A stretch of DNA of 64,000 bases, taken from positions 2,332,310 to 2,396,309 of the forward strand of contig CP070761.1 in NCBI GenBank assembly GCA_020348985.1. The letters run 5' to 3'. The stretch is from Candidatus Thorarchaeota archaeon (GTDB lineage Archaea > Asgardarchaeota > Thorarchaeia > Thorarchaeales > Thorarchaeaceae). The translations under genes were made by a program, and so were the position numbers. This document shows positions 18,038 through 26,297 of the stretch, in pieces. Each line of letters starts with the position of its first letter. Positions within the stretch are counted from its first letter, which is position 1. The notes under the pieces were generated by a model. The model did not search any database. It was not told the DNA's origin and was given only the letters and a program-made list of their open reading frames with translations.

Positions 18038-19027
18038 TCACAGCCTGCTCAGAATCTGTAGAATGTTTCCGAAGTTGTGCTCAACGGTCCTGCTCTTCTC
18101 GCTATACGATTCTAGATTCGCGAGTCTAGAGTCCTTTTCTAGTAGCTCACGGAATCTTTCCGAACGAATCTCTGAGTGGATCCGGTCATTGACATCAAGA
18201 ATCTGGTCTGATGTCTTGAGAATGAACTGGAGCATCTTGATCAGGAGGTGAAAGTCGTTGATGTCTCTGAGTTGTAACGTCTGACTGTAGAACTGAAATT
18301 CAAAGCGTGCAAGAAGCTCCCGCATGCCAGCTAGATCCACAAGCCAAATTGGGGATCCTTCTTCTTTTAGCTCCGAGTGGAGATCTGACCAACATGCTTG
18401 TTGTTCCAGCAACTGCACCAGATACCCACGTAAGAAGGCAAAGTGGTCGACACCCTCTTCGATGTCATCTTCAGTACCTATCGGACTCATCATTCCATCT
18501 GTCTGACTGTGTTTCACAGCAATCATCAGTGAGAATTTGTCCACGTAACGTTTGACTTCTTCTGTCTTCTCCTTACGTGACATCAAGTCGGAGAAGGTAT
18601 CCGCAAGAGTGAGAATGAACTTGTAAAGACATTCGGAGCATATCTCTGCACTTGCTGTTAGGTCCTTTGTCGAAAGAAACTGCAGAGCATCCTCGAGGTC
18701 ATTTCCTGGCACGTCATACCCGTGAATACGAAGAACCCACCCTTGAGAGATGCAGTATACCTTGTTATCCGGATAATTGACATAGATAGAGGTGTAGCAC
18801 ACATTGCTATCTTCGGATCTCTCCTCCAACATTCCTTTTCTGTTAGTCCTATAGGAGAAGACCTGAGGATCGACTTCCATCGCCTCAACTTCTAGTATGT
18901 TGTCATCATTGATACATAGCTTCTCATCACCAAAGACCTTGAAGCAGGGGCATCCTCTGACGAGTTTGATTGAGCCTCCTTTGCCGCTGCCATCTTGTGA
19001 TTCAACCAAGATTTCTCGGGATTCCAA
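18038..19027 (-). CDS. Cys-rich hypothetical protein, paralog of 19167..20126
   Basis: LVRGCPCFKVFGDEKLCIND, YCISQG, CSECLYK; helical C-terminus. Confidence 0.8.
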   Translation of the reverse strand: MESREILVESQDGSGKGGSIKLVRGCPCFKVFGDEKLCINDDNILEVEAMEVDPQVFSYRTNRKGMLEERSEDSNVCYTSIYVNYPDNKVYCISQGWVLRIHGYDVPGNDLEDALQFLSTKDLTASAEICSECLYKFILTLADTFSDLMSRKEKTEEVKRYVDKFSLMIAVKHSQTDGMMSPIGTEDDIEEGVDHFAFLRGYLVQLLEQQACWSDLHSELKEEGSPIWLVDLAGMRELLARFEFQFYSQTLQLRDINDFHLLIKMLQFILKTSDQILDVNDRIHSEIRSERFRELLEKDSRLANLESYSEKSRTVEHNFGNILQILSRL

Positions 19028-19166
19028 GCCATCATACCTCTGACAAAGAGTCGACGAAATGCACTAATCTTCTGGAAATCTAGGGATATAGGCATTGTTG
19101 TCAGATATTTGCTACATTTCCTTCACTTGCTTCCTTTCTCCAGATAGTCAGTCTGTGCCTTCTGGA

Positions 19167-20126
19167 CTATACATCGACCTGATTCAAGACCCCGACTAAG
19201 CCGGCGAATCGCTGTTCAGCCTTCCTCCGTCGAAGAGAATAACGCTCAAGGAATGACGCGAAGTCACACGGCTTGGATTCAGATTCCTCTAATCTTCGAA
19301 TTCTCTCTCGTATTGCATCACATAGATTGAGTACTCTTTCTGCGATGTCAACCATGTGCCTCAGTAGTCCAAGTGCAACGATTTCGTCACTAGCATCAAC
19401 CAGAGTTTCGACTTGGAAAAGGAAGATTGACTCGAGCCTTATGAGTTGCTTATGGTAGTCCACTACAGCGGCTGCATCTTCCATCTGATCGTCCAAGCTC
19501 AAAGAGCTCGCATATGTCGCAATCTCTGATCGTTCCTTTAGAGCCACTCCAACGTGGATAGAGATAAGCTCTCTCAGTACGCCATCCTTCTCTTCAGACA
19601 GATCTGCTTCTGCGCCTGAGAAATCCGTCAGAATCTTGATTGCCAGATTCTTGACATAGGTCACTATCATCTCAGCCTTTTCACTATCCGTAATCACGTC
19701 CTCGAAGACATTGCTCAGTGTCACTATGTATTTGTATAGACAGCTTGAGCACTGGGCCCCGTTTGCTGTCGCTCCAGTAATCGTCAGAAATTTGAGCGCG
19801 GCTTCCATATCCGCCGCCTTGATTGGTCTCTGATTGATTCTGAGCTTCCTGCCTTGACTCACACAGTATGTATCGTCTTCGACAGAGTCCAAACCTATCA
19901 AGAGATAGCAGAGTCCCTCCATGCTGCTACAATGCTCAAGCATATGCTCAACTGTATCTACGTGAGTGTAGAACGCCGGGTCGACAGAAATCGCTTTGAT
20001 TGGCAGAACACTATCGTGATTAATACAGACACTCTCGTCTCCAAACTCCTTGTAGCATGGACAACCCCTAACCAGACGAACATCCTTTTGAACGGCTCCT
20101 GATGTGGTTGAGCCGCTATCATTCAT
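19167..20126 (-). CDS. Cys-rich hypothetical protein, paralog of 18038..19027
   Basis: LVRGCPCYKEFGDESVCINH, YCVSQG, CSSCLYK; SD AGGTGT before ATG 20126. Confidence 0.75.
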   Translation of the reverse strand: MNDSGSTTSGAVQKDVRLVRGCPCYKEFGDESVCINHDSVLPIKAISVDPAFYTHVDTVEHMLEHCSSMEGLCYLLIGLDSVEDDTYCVSQGRKLRINQRPIKAADMEAALKFLTITGATANGAQCSSCLYKYIVTLSNVFEDVITDSEKAEMIVTYVKNLAIKILTDFSGAEADLSEEKDGVLRELISIHVGVALKERSEIATYASSLSLDDQMEDAAAVVDYHKQLIRLESIFLFQVETLVDASDEIVALGLLRHMVDIAERVLNLCDAIRERIRRLEESESKPCDFASFLERYSLRRRKAEQRFAGLVGVLNQVDV

Positions 20127-20261
20127 AAGACATACACCTAGTCGCTTTTCGCCGACAAACCCTTTTGCGAGCAAAATGGGGTCAGTCCACGGAATATCTG
20201 TCAGCTCATTTGGCGCTGATATTAACGTTTCTTGATTGGATGGCGACCAGGTGGACCAATT

Positions 20262-20402
20262 CTAGCCCCATAGCTCGCGCTTGAGAAGATCCCGAATAGC
20301 GATTCGAATTGCCTCTGACCTGTTTGGATAGAGCCTTGATTCGACCAGTCTCTCGAGACCCTCGACGTACTGCTCAGGAATATGAAGTGTGACGAGTTTC
20401 AT
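20262..20402 (-). CDS. 46-aa ribbon-helix-helix regulator, CdrS/CopG-like (not in the ORF track)
   Basis: Translated by hand: MKLVTLHIPEQYVEGLERLVESRLYPNRSEAIRIAIRDLLKRELWG; SD AGGTGT upstream. Confidence 0.9.
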   Translation of the reverse strand: MKLVTLHIPEQYVEGLERLVESRLYPNRSEAIRIAIRDLLKRELWG

Positions 20403-20447: not shown

Positions 20448-20466
20448 TTGAGTATTACTCACTCAA
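20448..20466. promoter_or_regulatory. palindromic operator upstream of the RHH gene
   Basis: TGAGTA-T-TACTCA (20449-20461) containing AGTATTA; related GTCATAC at 20429-20435. Confidence 0.55.
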
Positions 20467-21979: not shown

Positions 21980-24109
21980 ATGGTGGATAAGCAAGAAGGG
22001 ATTCGCCACCTCTTCAATCCACGCTCTATTGCCGTGATTGGGGCATCTGATACAAAAGGGAAACTCGGGAATTCAGTTGTGAAAAACCTGCTTCAGAGTG
22101 GCTATCCGGGCAAAATCTATCCTATCAACCCCAAGGGAGGCGAGATTCTTGGGCTGAAAGTCCACAAGTCCGTTGGTGACGTGAAAGGCGACGTTGATGT
22201 GGCTGTCATTGTCATTCCCGCACGTTTCGTTCTGCCAGTTGTTGAAGAGTGTGGCAAGAAGGGAGTAAGAGCGCTGGTCGTAATCACGGCAGGATTCAGA
22301 GAAATTGGACACGAAGGTCAACAAGCGGAACAGAAAATGGTTGAACTAGCTAACAAATACGGAATGGTTCTACAAGGACCTAATGTTTTAGGCATGGTCA
22401 ACAACAGCGAGCCGTTTCCCTACAACGCATCCTTCGCTGCAGGTACTCCTGACAAGGGGCCGATAGCATTCGCATCTCAATCTGGAGCACTGATGACTGG
22501 AATTCTGGATTGGAGCCTTACAGAGAAGATTGGTTTCTCCAAGTTCGTGAGCCTTGGTAACAAGAGCCAATTGGATGAGGCAGACTTTGTCGAGGCTTTT
22601 GGCAAGGATCCAGACTCGAAATTCATTCTCCTCTACATCGAGTCTGTAATCGAGGGCCGTAGGTTCATGAAAGTGTGCCGCGAGGTGACTCCTCACAAGC
22701 CAGTTTTCGTTGTCAAATCAGGGGTCAGCCAGGCAGGTGCCCGAGCCGCGTCATCTCACACGGGTTCTCTGGCAGGAAGTGACATGGCCTACGAGGTTGC
22801 ATTCAAACAGTCTGGAGTGATTCGTGCAGATAACATGGCTGAGCTCTTTGAAGTGGCCAATGTCTACGATGACATGGGTCTTCCTCCGGGGAATCGTGTT
22901 GCGATCATAACAAATGCGGGAGGGCCCGGTATACTCACGACTGACGCTTGTGAGCTGATGGGCTTGAAGATTGCCCAGTTATCATCAGACACTATTGCCT
23001 ACTTGAAAGAAAAAATGCCGCCAGCAGCATCAGTGTACAATCCAATCGATGCATTGGGAACTGCGCAGCCTGAGCACTATTCATCGTGTCTAGAGGCCGT
23101 CATGAGAGATGAGAATGTAGACTCAGTTCTGATTCTCCTGACTCCACAAGCAATGACGAAACCCATTGAGACCGCTGAGGTTTTGGTGGAATCGTACAGG
23201 AAGTACCCAGACAAACCTCTCCTTGCAGTCTTCATGGGCGGATCAACGATGGACCGACCCAGAATCATACTAAATGAGGGAGGAATACCAGAATTCGATT
23301 TTCCCGAGAGAGCGGTCAACGCCCTCGCAGAGCTCTACAGATACACCGTTGTACGAGATCGAATGACCGATGAAGCGACTCCTTCGTTTTCAGTTGACAA
23401 GAAAAAGGTCAATGAGATTATTGCGAAGGTTCGAGAAGATGGCCGTCGTGTCATGTTGGGCAGTGAAGCACATTCGATTGCCGAGGCCTACGGCATCCCT
23501 GTCGCGAAGATAAGATTGGCAACAAGTTCAGAAGAAGCAAAGAGAATCGCCAATGACCTCGGGTACCCCTTGGTCATGAAGATTTCAAGTCCGGACATAA
23601 TTCACAAGACAGACATTGGTGGCATTATGCTCGGTCTAGAAACAGAAGAGGAGGTTGAGGCGGCCTTCCTCGAGATTCTTGGTAATGCTCGAACTCATGC
23701 TCCAAGAGCTGTGATCTACGGAGTCGATGTCCAGCAGATGGTACCAAAGGGAAAGGAGCTGATAATCGGATGTTCTCGAGACGTCCAGTTTGGACCCCTC
23801 GTTATGTTTGGAGCAGGTGGCATCTTCGTGAACTATCTGAAGGATGTGGCGTTCAGGCTGGCACCATTGACACGTACGCATGCTGCTGACCTAATGGATG
23901 AGACAAAGATGAGTACCATCTTGAAGGGCGTTCGTGGAGAAGCTCCAAGTGACTTGGCAGCGCTAGAGGATACAATACTTCGAATCAGTCAACTTGTGAC
24001 AGACTTTGAGGACGTCGTCGAGTTGGACATAAACCCCGTCTTCTGTTATGAGAAAGGTCAAGGGATTTCAGCAGTCGACGTGAAGATTACGATAAGTGGT
24101 GAACGTTAA
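21980..24109 (+). CDS. ADP-forming acyl-CoA synthetase (fused AcdA-AcdB)
   Basis: PRSIAVIGAS, GPNVLG, SQSGAL, SSHTGSLAG, NPID, HKTDIGG, ELDINP. Confidence 0.93.
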   Translation: MVDKQEGIRHLFNPRSIAVIGASDTKGKLGNSVVKNLLQSGYPGKIYPINPKGGEILGLKVHKSVGDVKGDVDVAVIVIPARFVLPVVEECGKKGVRALVVITAGFREIGHEGQQAEQKMVELANKYGMVLQGPNVLGMVNNSEPFPYNASFAAGTPDKGPIAFASQSGALMTGILDWSLTEKIGFSKFVSLGNKSQLDEADFVEAFGKDPDSKFILLYIESVIEGRRFMKVCREVTPHKPVFVVKSGVSQAGARAASSHTGSLAGSDMAYEVAFKQSGVIRADNMAELFEVANVYDDMGLPPGNRVAIITNAGGPGILTTDACELMGLKIAQLSSDTIAYLKEKMPPAASVYNPIDALGTAQPEHYSSCLEAVMRDENVDSVLILLTPQAMTKPIETAEVLVESYRKYPDKPLLAVFMGGSTMDRPRIILNEGGIPEFDFPERAVNALAELYRYTVVRDRMTDEATPSFSVDKKKVNEIIAKVREDGRRVMLGSEAHSIAEAYGIPVAKIRLATSSEEAKRIANDLGYPLVMKISSPDIIHKTDIGGIMLGLETEEEVEAAFLEILGNARTHAPRAVIYGVDVQQMVPKGKELIIGCSRDVQFGPLVMFGAGGIFVNYLKDVAFRLAPLTRTHAADLMDETKMSTILKGVRGEAPSDLAALEDTILRISQLVTDFEDVVELDINPVFCYEKGQGISAVDVKITISGER

Positions 24110-25170
24110 TGGCTAGGAATATTGTAGTAACCGGGGAGGCGGGCACAGGAAAGACCATGGTGGCCCTAGCGATTGCCATGGGACTTCGTGCCAAAGGAAA
24201 GAAAGTGGGTTACTTCAAGCCTGCTGGAGAGAAAAGCTTCAAACGTAGCAAGGACGGAATGTCGATTGACGAGGACGCTGCAATAATGAAAGATGTCCTC
24301 GGCTTGGAGGCAGATGCTGGGTCTATCTGCCCGATACCTCAGTCTCATACATCGTTTGATGAGCTCGCAAAGATTGGCACCGCTGACCTGAAGGCCAAGA
24401 TCCAGGAGTCTTATGATGAAGTATCCAGGGGCATGGATGTTGTTATCATCGAAGGTACAAGAGATCCCTGGCAGCTTCTACACGTGAATCTCTCAACCCC
24501 TCAGATAGCTCAGATGATGGAGGCCCGTGTTCTCTGCCTTGTCAATTTCACCGAGCTATCTGCGACCGACAATATCCTCCATCTGAAGAGTTTCTTCAAT
24601 CAGCACGGCATCGCCTCTATGGGCGTTGTGCTGACTATGGTACCCCCGATGCTCAAGAACACGATTCAGAATGAGATACCGAAGTTCATGGAGGAACATG
24701 AAATTGGCTTCTGCGGAGCGATATATCATCGAAGAGAGCTATTCAATCCCACAATACGAGATATCCTGCGTGCTCTGGATGGAGAAATGATAGTGGGGGA
24801 CGACAAGCTGGATCATCTTATCGATCAATTCCTAATTGGAAGCATGCTGCCGGAAAATGCGCTGAAGTGGTTCCGCAGAGCTAGGGACAGTGCTGTCATC
24901 ACAGGCGGCGACCGTGCTGATCTTTGTCTTGCTGCAATGGAAACAGATGTAGCTTTGTTGATTCTGACTGGGGGTCTAGGTCCTGACATCCGAACAATCT
25001 CTAGGGCAAAGGAGACTGGTGTTCCCATTCTGATGACGGCTCACGACACGTATGCAACGGGGCGAATTGTTGACGGACTCATAGGGACAGTTTCTGCAGA
25101 GAATAAGAGGAAGATAAAGACCATAGAGAAGATTGTTGGTGAAGCACTGGACTTTGCATGCCTCAGTTAG
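24109..25170 (+). CDS. phosphotransacetylase N-terminal-like protein (BioD-like plus DRTGG)
   Basis: GTGKT, VGYFKP, IIEG, ITGGDRAD, LILTGG. Confidence 0.88.
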   Translation: MARNIVVTGEAGTGKTMVALAIAMGLRAKGKKVGYFKPAGEKSFKRSKDGMSIDEDAAIMKDVLGLEADAGSICPIPQSHTSFDELAKIGTADLKAKIQESYDEVSRGMDVVIIEGTRDPWQLLHVNLSTPQIAQMMEARVLCLVNFTELSATDNILHLKSFFNQHGIASMGVVLTMVPPMLKNTIQNEIPKFMEEHEIGFCGAIYHRRELFNPTIRDILRALDGEMIVGDDKLDHLIDQFLIGSMLPENALKWFRRARDSAVITGGDRADLCLAAMETDVALLILTGGLGPDIRTISRAKETGVPILMTAHDTYATGRIVDGLIGTVSAENKRKIKTIEKIVGEALDFACLS

Positions 25171-25178
25171 AATCCACA

Positions 25179-25444
25179 ACCGTCCGAAGAGGGTGGTGAG
25201 AAGGAGCGGAATCGCTCCAACTCAGAAACAACGAGAGCGTTGGACTCGCCGGGAGGAGTCCAATACGCAAGATGTTGGCTTGAAGACAAGGATAAGTCAC
25301 TGTGTGTAGTTCAGCAAATACCGGCTCTTTGCTCTAGTAATACCCTGAACAAGTGACAAGTATAGCTAATCTCAAGAGAAGTGGATAGCCAACGCTAGGT
25401 GACACGGACAGCTATTCTCAGCGGATGAGAAGTCTCGTTTTTCT
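25179..25444 (+). ncRNA. candidate structured RNA of unknown class
   Basis: At least seven nested or adjacent helices plus complementary loops (see findings); G-U pairs favour the + strand. Confidence 0.5.
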
Positions 25445-25503
25445 GGTTGCTTCTGCTTCTCGCAAAGGATTTATGACAGCGTCTTCCGTTGCCAATGCGC
25501 GAC

Positions 25504-25516
25504 TTTACTAAGTAAA
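25504..25516. promoter_or_regulatory. perfect palindrome TTTACT-A-AGTAAA next to the SD of the nitroreductase/beta-oxidation operon
   Basis: 6-bp arms immediately 5' of GAGGT (25518). Confidence 0.45.
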
Positions 25517-25529
25517 CGAGGTATGTTAA

Positions 25530-26297
25530 TTGGCAGGAAGTGCTGCAGAAACAACACCGGATTCGGCTGAAAGGGCTGAGGCTGGTTCGGAGACAGCTGG
25601 TGAGCTGAAATCTCTTGAACTAGTCAGGTCTCGGAGGTCAATCCGAGAATTCACAGGCGAACGCATTCCCGATGAGCACATCGAGCTCATCTTGGAGGCT
25701 GCTCGGCATGCTCCAAGTCCGGAGAACATGCTGATGATTCGTTTCATTGTGATTCGCGACGATCAAGAAACCAAGGAATTCCTCGCAGACATTGCTCAGG
25801 AAATGGCTGAAACCGCGTTTGGTGGTGCGCCGTTTGAGCTCACTTCTGGACGAAACTGGTTCATATCGGACCCGTATCGTGCGGCAGTCTACGCGAGGTT
25901 AAGGGATGGAAAGCTATTCAGATATCCCGAGAAGAGCGATGCTGTAATCCTAGTTTGTGCAAGTGAAACATGGCATGATGCCGGCTATCTGTATCCCAAT
26001 GATCTCTTCGGTTCTGTTGTGTCAGGAATGGCAATTCAGAACATGTGGCTTGTAGCCACAGAGCTGGGATACGGATGTGGGTACGAGGCATTGGTCTGTT
26101 CAGACCCCCGACATGCAATGCTAATCAGAGACCGAGTTGGAATCCCGCCAACTTGGACACCTTTGACAGCATTCTGTATTGGAGTCAGAGTGTCGCCAAG
26201 AGCATTAGGACCTAGCAGACCTCCAATCGAGGGTCTCATGTACGAGGAGCGTTGGGGTCTTCCGTACAAGCGTATGGCATTCAGGAAGAAGGGGTGA
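25530..26297 (+). CDS. nitroreductase family flavoprotein
   Basis: SRRSIREF, LEAARHAPSPEN, IQNMWLVATELGYG. Confidence 0.88.
   Translation: MAGSAAETTPDSAERAEAGSETAGELKSLELVRSRRSIREFTGERIPDEHIELILEAARHAPSPENMLMIRFIVIRDDQETKEFLADIAQEMAETAFGGAPFELTSGRNWFISDPYRAAVYARLRDGKLFRYPEKSDAVILVCASETWHDAGYLYPNDLFGSVVSGMAIQNMWLVATELGYGCGYEALVCSDPRHAMLIRDRVGIPPTWTPLTAFCIGVRVSPRALGPSRPPIEGLMYEERWGLPYKRMAFRKKG

Follow-up and report, generated by a model that had tools for sequence, protein, structure and literature searches.

An autonomous, single-copy small RNA gene is probably present on the minus strand of an intergenic gap in this Thorarchaeota genome, and would encode a non-coding RNA of ~80 nt with two hairpins that belongs to one Thorarchaeota family. 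From the sequence, the gene is most likely located at ~25197-25268 (minus strand), where it would be antisense to the plus-strand gene blocks on either side. The element is conserved, its helices covary and show a strand bias, and it is present as a single copy. The RNA family is new: it is matched by no Rfam family and was previously undescribed. Positions refer to the window, which is the whole stretch of DNA that was analysed (64,000 nt).

Locus and layout of the element

The element is located in a gap of 359 nt between a DRTGG/AAA_26 gene and a nitroreductase-family gene. The features of the locus are as follows.

21980-24109, plus strand: ADP-forming acyl-CoA synthetase (ACD) gene, preceding the DRTGG gene
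24109-25170, plus strand: DRTGG/AAA_26 (PtaN-like) gene, upstream of the gap
25197-25200 with 25221-25224, minus strand: P0' (UGAG/CUCA), extending P1'; forms in ~70% of sequences
25203-25218, minus strand: 3' hairpin P1' (GGAGCG-N4-CGCUCC), with a nearly invariant core
25225-25236, minus strand: single-stranded pyrimidine/U-rich linker (GUUGUUUCU here), from a list of 51 homologues and alignment A7
25237-25268, minus strand: 5' hairpin P2', with an 11-bp stem formed by 25237-25247 and 25256-25268 that has a 2-nt bulge in this genome
25248-25255, minus strand: apical loop with invariant CUCCCGG (plus strand GCCGGGAG); the CCGGGA columns are invariant in 51 sequences
25269-25289, minus strand: spacer from the box to the base of P2', variable in sequence and constant in length
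25290-25297, minus strand: candidate TATA box for the RNA gene, reading ACTTATCC in this genome and ACTTATGG in most relatives
25298-25371, minus strand: conserved upstream block (ATACAAG, AGTATTGGC, the palindrome AATAYT-N5-AGTATT, and GTATTGYC), covered by model R1
25415-25444, plus strand: TTCTCA/TGAGAA hairpin followed by a T5 tract, outside the conserved RNA and just upstream of the nitroreductase promoter
25459-25476, plus strand: conserved BRE/TATA-like box before the nitroreductase operon, reading CTCGCAAAGGATTTATGA in this genome and CTCGSAATACATTTATG in relatives
25530-26297, plus strand: nitroreductase-family gene, downstream of the gap and heading an operon

The predicted RNA would be composed of a 5' hairpin with the invariant CUCCCGG loop (core UCCC), a U-rich single-stranded linker, and a GC-rich 3' hairpin. 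A UCCC tetraloop with C-G and Y-G as closing pairs is one way of drawing the apical loop, and the linker of relatives reads UUCUUUCUUG, CCUUUUUGG, or AUUUUUGA. A C/U-rich tail follows P1'/P0', with no clean oligo-U run after P1' in this genome. When viewed on the plus strand, the region begins with P1 (GGAGC/GCUCC), often with P0 (UGAG/CUCA), and continues with an A-rich linker and P2, a long hairpin whose stem is free to vary and whose loop keeps CCGGGAG. Approximately 22 variable nt are then followed by the conserved series AUAAGU.A.CUUGURU - GCCAAUAC...AGUAUU - GACAAUAC, a T-rich sequence, and the conserved CTCGSAATACATTTATG before the nitroreductase gene.

The nitroreductase operon also contains two small ORFs, an SCP2-like gene, and a gene for 3-hydroxyacyl-CoA dehydrogenase (HCDH). 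Its first gene starts with TTG at 25530, with a ribosome-binding site (GAGGT) 8 nt before the start codon, and the BRE/TATA-like box is located ~55 nt upstream of this TTG. Orthologues of the nitroreductase-family protein are 75-86% identical across the family, which is unusually high compared with the neighbouring DRTGG protein (50-63%), and a second paralogue (68-79% identity) is found in many genomes, including this one (G000) at C1:1677205. Neither the neighbouring small ORFs nor the Cys-rich paralogues described below matched any Pfam family. The TTCTCA/TGAGAA hairpin and T5 tract, with T-rich tracts at the equivalent position in many relatives, probably represent a terminator of plus-strand ACD-DRTGG transcripts. 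If this is true, the 3' UTR of the ACD-DRTGG mRNA would be fully antisense to the RNA gene wherever this gene arrangement is present.

Conserved helices, covariation, and strand

The gap had been read in the preliminary description as a highly structured candidate RNA of ~270 nt with a possible kissing loop. All of the complementary segments listed there were found at their positions when the sequence was read, and the 12-bp closing helix (25224-25236/25433-25444) pairs as 7 bp, one bulged C, and 5 bp. The gap did not prove to be unusually structured, as its plus-strand minimum free energy was -107 kcal/mol vs -100.2 kcal/mol for shuffled sequences (z -1.15; 14 of 100 shuffles were as good). 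On the minus strand, the ~360-nt gap had a folding z of -2.28 vs shuffles. Only two elements in the gap were both above chance and conserved, namely the GGAGCG/CGCTCC hairpin (25203-25218, with flanks TGAG/CTCA) and the hairpin around TTGGACTC/GAGTCCAA (25237-25268), and for these the earlier reading was correct. The 81-nt core of this genome, in contrast, folded with z -5.38 (minus strand) and -4.91 (plus strand), and 0/200 shuffles were as good.

Homologues were collected from the region downstream of DRTGG orthologues in 30 family genomes and from 47 named Thorarchaeota records, and the conserved element was found in nearly all of the DRTGG-downstream regions gathered. A blastn search for copies returned a single 31-nt match, which was syntenic and came from a same-genus genome, and no further copy in the genome itself. 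P0/P1 and P2 alone were recovered in consensus folds of the homologues (RNAalifold gave an empty structure on alignment A3, due to a gap-rich block). The 12-bp closing helix and the nested arm (GTTGGCT>GTCACT>GTTCAG) were absent from the consensus folds of 29-60 homologues and are confined to this genome, as is the ACCGTCC/GGGTGGT hairpin; TTCTCA/TGAGAA was not recovered in these folds as part of a conserved structure. The exact GCAAA/TTTGC pairing at the tip of the arm was also lost, although a register-shifted counterpart of it exists as a largely invariant palindrome. The proposed kissing loop lacks its partner in relatives, which carry CUGGGUU, CUCACCC, and similar sequences at the position equivalent to CCGGC (25321). 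The attractive 270-nt fold derived from one sequence was mostly chance.

Covariation was assessed for three helices in a MAFFT alignment (n=51), in which 84.4% of cells were paired vs 77.3% in shuffles and double-sided changes were present at 18/26 pairs. None of 500 shuffles reached any observed measure, and slid-partner controls were 34-57% paired. In an alignment of 61 distinct sequences, which was fitted to the model and with which the MAFFT alignment agreed, the lower stem of P2' was 92.4% paired and had double-sided changes at all 9 of its 9 pairs. The closing and outer pairs of the 3' hairpin covary, with double-sided changes at 8/11 pairs. Two further candidate helices were rejected: P3 (UUGURU with RUAYRR) was 64.7% paired vs 62.3% in shuffles and scored equally when slid by +2, and the variation in an AUAAG/CUUGU mini-hairpin was uncompensated. 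No consistent or conserved reading frame was found across the motif on either strand.

It is very likely that the RNA is encoded on the minus strand, opposite to the strand first implied. This placement is based on the asymmetry between G·U and A·C pairs, the pairing of the base before the loop, and the stability of the minus strand. Counted on a fixed structure and in sequences that are not phylogenetically independent, minus-strand G·U exceeded A·C in P2 (51 vs 10), the AAUAYU/AGUAUU palindrome (45 vs 10), and the P1 core (25 vs 5); the outer P0 pairs, which are poorly conserved, had the opposite bias (9 vs 28). Several lineages have tandem C·A/A·C mismatches in the middle of plus-strand P2, and these read as tandem G·U on the minus strand. 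CUCCCGG is preceded by a C or a U, whose pairing with G is possible on the minus strand only (alignment A7). Of the 51 sequences, 35 gave a P1-P2 region of higher stability when read as the minus strand, and the RNAalifold consensus energy was -37.6 for the minus strand vs -36.0 for the plus strand.

Distribution, promoter, and extent of the transcript

Two models were used for genome searches, R1 with 185 positions and R2, which covers the core only, with 84 positions. Each matched this genome once on the minus strand, R1 at 25189-25371 (91.8 bits) and R2 at 25193-25274. Copies of R1, nearly always single, were found in 69 of the 86 family genomes and in 14 of 16 genera, and full-length matches across the family scored 90-166 bits. 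In a phylum-wide sample, R2 matched 19/26 family genomes and 0/125 genomes from 26 other families. Duplications were seen in two genomes. The whole RNA unit is present as a tandem duplicate in G016 (C4:26580-27038; L101:3081-3539), where the 3' hairpin of the second copy is remodelled, and G050 has two copies ~2 kb apart (C3:823750-825953; L095). Four fairly complete genomes that contain the nitroreductase gene (G001, G006, G014, and G015) had no clear copy upstream of it; G006 retained just a CUCCUCCCGGC word, located and oriented as expected for a copy. A mobile-element relic, as which the gap had also been interpreted, was rejected: blastn and both models found one copy in the 3.16-Mb genome, and the position is syntenic across 14 genera.

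In every locus examined, the nitroreductase operon lies on the other strand and 5' of the RNA, so that their relative orientation is constant, and the distance between them is usually 110-160 nt, rising to ~1-1.7 kb with one extra gene in genera g8 and g9. The 3' neighbour differs by genus, being a convergent DRTGG gene, ACD alone, or a cdrS-like gene; because of this variation, the unit appears to be autonomous and independent of the transcript of any single neighbour. In 28 loci, the element begins 3-38 nt past the DRTGG stop codon. In genera g5 and g6, a co-oriented cdrS-like RHH gene and then two Cys-rich paralogues of ~330 aa are found 3' of the RNA. The corresponding cdrS-like and Cys-rich genes of the window are located at 18038-20402 (minus strand), 5 kb from the RNA (those of a relative at L097:3354-5724), and a block of ~4.8 kb (two ORFs, ACD, and DRTGG) separates them from the RNA in this genome. 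Compared with the window copies, the Cys-rich paralogues of genera without an adjacent DRTGG gene have 38% and 67% identity.

The close spacing to the DRTGG stop codon, the constant orientation to the downstream plus-strand operon, and the hairpin and T-tract that follow the element on the plus strand would all suit a cis-acting plus-strand RNA, either as the 3' UTR of ACD-DRTGG or as a long 5' leader or attenuator of nitroreductase-SCP2-HCDH. Such an RNA is nevertheless improbable, as A·C mismatches would exceed G·U pairs ~5-fold in the plus-strand helices, no DRTGG gene adjoins the element in several genera, and the extra gene of g8 and g9 intervenes before the nitroreductase gene. The large plus-strand fold is no better than shuffles and is not conserved. 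Downstream of the element, a conserved BRE/TATA-like box separates it from the nitroreductase start, and this box, together with the mismatch asymmetry that favours the opposite strand, argues against a riboswitch or other cis-acting 5' leader; the riboswitch-like element of the preliminary description is disfavoured on the same grounds.

For the minus-strand gene, a candidate promoter was identified upstream of P2'. In 51 sequences from ~14 genera, the spacer from the TTATG box to P2' was 21-24 nt in length (23 nt in 27 sequences, 22 nt in 17, 21 nt in 4, and 24 nt in 3), and the A and T of the box were invariant. This arrangement fits archaeal TATA-to-start geometry, and the box is thus a predicted promoter element. 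For comparison, TTAATG is found ~29 nt upstream of the RNase P RNA gene in this genome, YTTWAWA boxes precede the tRNA genes at -28 to -40, and ATTTATG occurs upstream of the nitroreductase gene. If the box and the constant-length spacer correspond to TATA-to-start spacing, the 5' end would lie at the base of P2'. Transcription would therefore start at or just before ~25268 and end in the pyrimidine-rich tail at ~25190-25197, giving a predicted RNA of ~75-85 nt.

The block upstream of the box is conserved in sequence and lacks covariation, with double-sided changes at 2/6 pairs of the palindrome (2 cells each). It is favoured as promoter or operator DNA over a 5' domain of a longer RNA, because it contains repeated GTATTGSC/AGTATT words and no covariation. 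A minus-strand RNA of ~150-185 nt, in which the block (AGUAUUGGC, AUACAAG..ACUUAUG, and the AAUAYU/AGUAUU hairpin) would form this 5' domain, is rather unlikely. The ~70-nt block is indeed more conserved than a typical promoter, the full-length R1 matches extend through it across the family, the palindrome can be folded as a 6-bp hairpin with the G·U bias given above, and a weaker A/T-rich box is found farther upstream. Against a longer RNA, the double-sided changes in the palindrome are as few as stated, no other helix of the block survived the controls or appeared in consensus folds, and the spacer keeps its length while its sequence varies, the pattern that TATA-to-start spacing would produce.

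The SCAATAC/GTATTGSC words occur three times at the locus (25298-25371 and 25459-25476): in the palindrome, ~37 nt farther from the RNA, and abutting the nitroreductase TATA-like box. The promoter of the cdrS-like gene has a GAGTAATACTC palindrome at ~20455-20465. These words may be operator sites for RHH-like proteins encoded nearby. Such operator-like repeats, the position of the element between transcription units, and the pyrimidine/U-rich sequence after each hairpin on the minus strand could also be accounted for without a functional RNA, the hairpins being terminators or insulators between units or DNA palindromes bound by protein. This explanation is very unlikely, since no upstream minus-strand gene needs termination, the CUCCCGG loop is invariant over 14 genera, which is not required of terminators, and the stems vary freely with pairing kept, unlike DNA operators.

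Relationship to known RNA classes and possible function

A search of the whole window against Rfam 15 at gathering thresholds gave 0 matches, and relaxing the threshold to E up to 10 for positions 25100-25600 gave just two chance-level matches of 14-15 bits. The idea of an unknown non-coding RNA is supported by this result together with conservation and covariation; the size, architecture, and implied strand first assigned to it are not upheld. The preliminary description had noted no hallmarks of RNase P RNA or SRP RNA, and both identities were rejected. Archaeal RNase P RNA (RF00373) has no match here even at E 10, and the copy of this genome is found elsewhere (C1:992421-992761, 160 bits). 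Archaeal SRP RNA (RF01857) likewise has no match here at E 10, and in G002 and other relatives that also carry the element it is located on other contigs. The likeness to these two RNAs was limited to the size originally proposed (~270-300 nt) and the intergenic location. SRP RNA was found in 29/31 relatives. In this genome there was neither a match to RF01857 nor a blastn match to the SRP RNA of G001, which belongs to the same genus; the missing SRP RNA is probably an assembly gap, and ARAGORN detected 21 tRNA genes in the single 3.16-Mb contig, which is rated 86% complete.

Archaeal C/D-box and H/ACA sRNAs resemble the element in their small size and in having a hairpin with an internal or apical loop. 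A C/D-box assignment was rejected, as no RUGAUGA/CUGA boxes are conserved in alignments A5 and A7 and the CUGA within AAGCUGAC is free to vary. H/ACA was rejected because P2' is followed by AUU, AUC, or ACU and not by ACA, and because the apical region of 15-18 nt is too short for a pseudouridylation pocket and K-loop. Readings as hammerhead or K-turn RNAs were discarded on the basis that their defining motifs are not conserved.

Based on analogy with known systems, the element is probably a putative regulatory RNA of Lsm type. The archaeal Lsm/SmAP-associated sRNAs and the Sm sites of eukaryotic snRNAs share a layout in which a U-rich single strand is located between two stem-loops. The Thorarchaeota RNA is similar in having a U-rich stretch that ends in UG(A/G) and a second flanking stem-loop that is 3'-terminal; most homologues have this single-stranded site between stem-loops, and in a few it is weak or missing. 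It differs from Sm-site RNAs in that many lineages have a C or A interrupting the U-tract and a few loci (L083, L084, and L094) lack the tract, and from snRNAs in showing no sequence similarity, in line with the negative Rfam scan.

A second likeness is to C-rich seed-loop sRNAs, which have a conserved unpaired C-rich word; here CUCCCGG is invariant in the apical loop. In Staphylococcus aureus, unpaired UCCC loops of the Rsa RNAs and RNAIII bind Shine-Dalgarno sequences and block initiation (PMC2790875). These and the other UCCC-loop sRNAs of Firmicutes (such as RsaE/RoxS) likewise have 5' and 3' hairpins and a conserved unpaired UCCC word, which is in their most conserved part, as it is in the Thorarchaeota RNA. 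There is no sequence homology to the Firmicutes sRNAs, however; they belong to a different domain of life, the word is longer here (CUCCCGG), and its complement is not enriched at ORF starts.

It is conceivable, if somewhat doubtful, that the RNA acts in trans, with the unpaired C-rich loop pairing with G-rich Shine-Dalgarno-like sites (GGGAG/CCGGGAG) of target mRNAs and an archaeal Sm-like protein (SmAP/Lsm) binding the RNA at the U-rich linker that separates its stem-loops. This proposal was made because of the sRNA-like layout, the UCCC likeness, and the GAGGT ribosome-binding site of the nitroreductase gene. Its simple loop-pairing version is weakened by two results. CCGGGAG was located upstream of ORF starts at 16 of 230 sites in this genome, a fraction below that of control words and thus no enrichment, and in an RNAduplex comparison the RNA and the 5' region of the nitroreductase gene did not co-vary (cognate rank 24.0 vs 23.5 expected), although this test is crude, its energies being dominated by very long spurious duplexes. 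Within the neighbouring operon in the window, no CCGGGAG or GTATTGSC sites were found. A protein-recognition hairpin, as part of an RNP scaffold, would explain the seven invariant loop nt at least as well. A scaffold of the Sm class, in which a 5' stem-loop with an invariant recognition loop, an Sm-site-like ...UUUUG-R stretch, and a 3'-terminal stem-loop would be assembled with an Asgard Lsm/SmAP ring, is an unlikely outcome; if true, the snRNA body plan would have a counterpart in prokaryotes, and the RNA would not be an ordinary base-pairing sRNA.

Thorarchaeota are uncultured and, to our knowledge, almost nothing is known about Asgard non-coding RNAs beyond rRNA, tRNA, SRP RNA, and RNase P RNA. 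The element provides a covariation-supported RNA family confined to one Thorarchaeota family, with a defined gene unit that can be searched for in metatranscriptomes using R1 and R2. Its neighbours are an acetyl-CoA synthetase block, an operon of the beta-oxidation type, and, in some genera, a cdrS-like regulator of cell division, and it gives a concrete starting point for studies of post-transcriptional regulation in this Thorarchaeota lineage.
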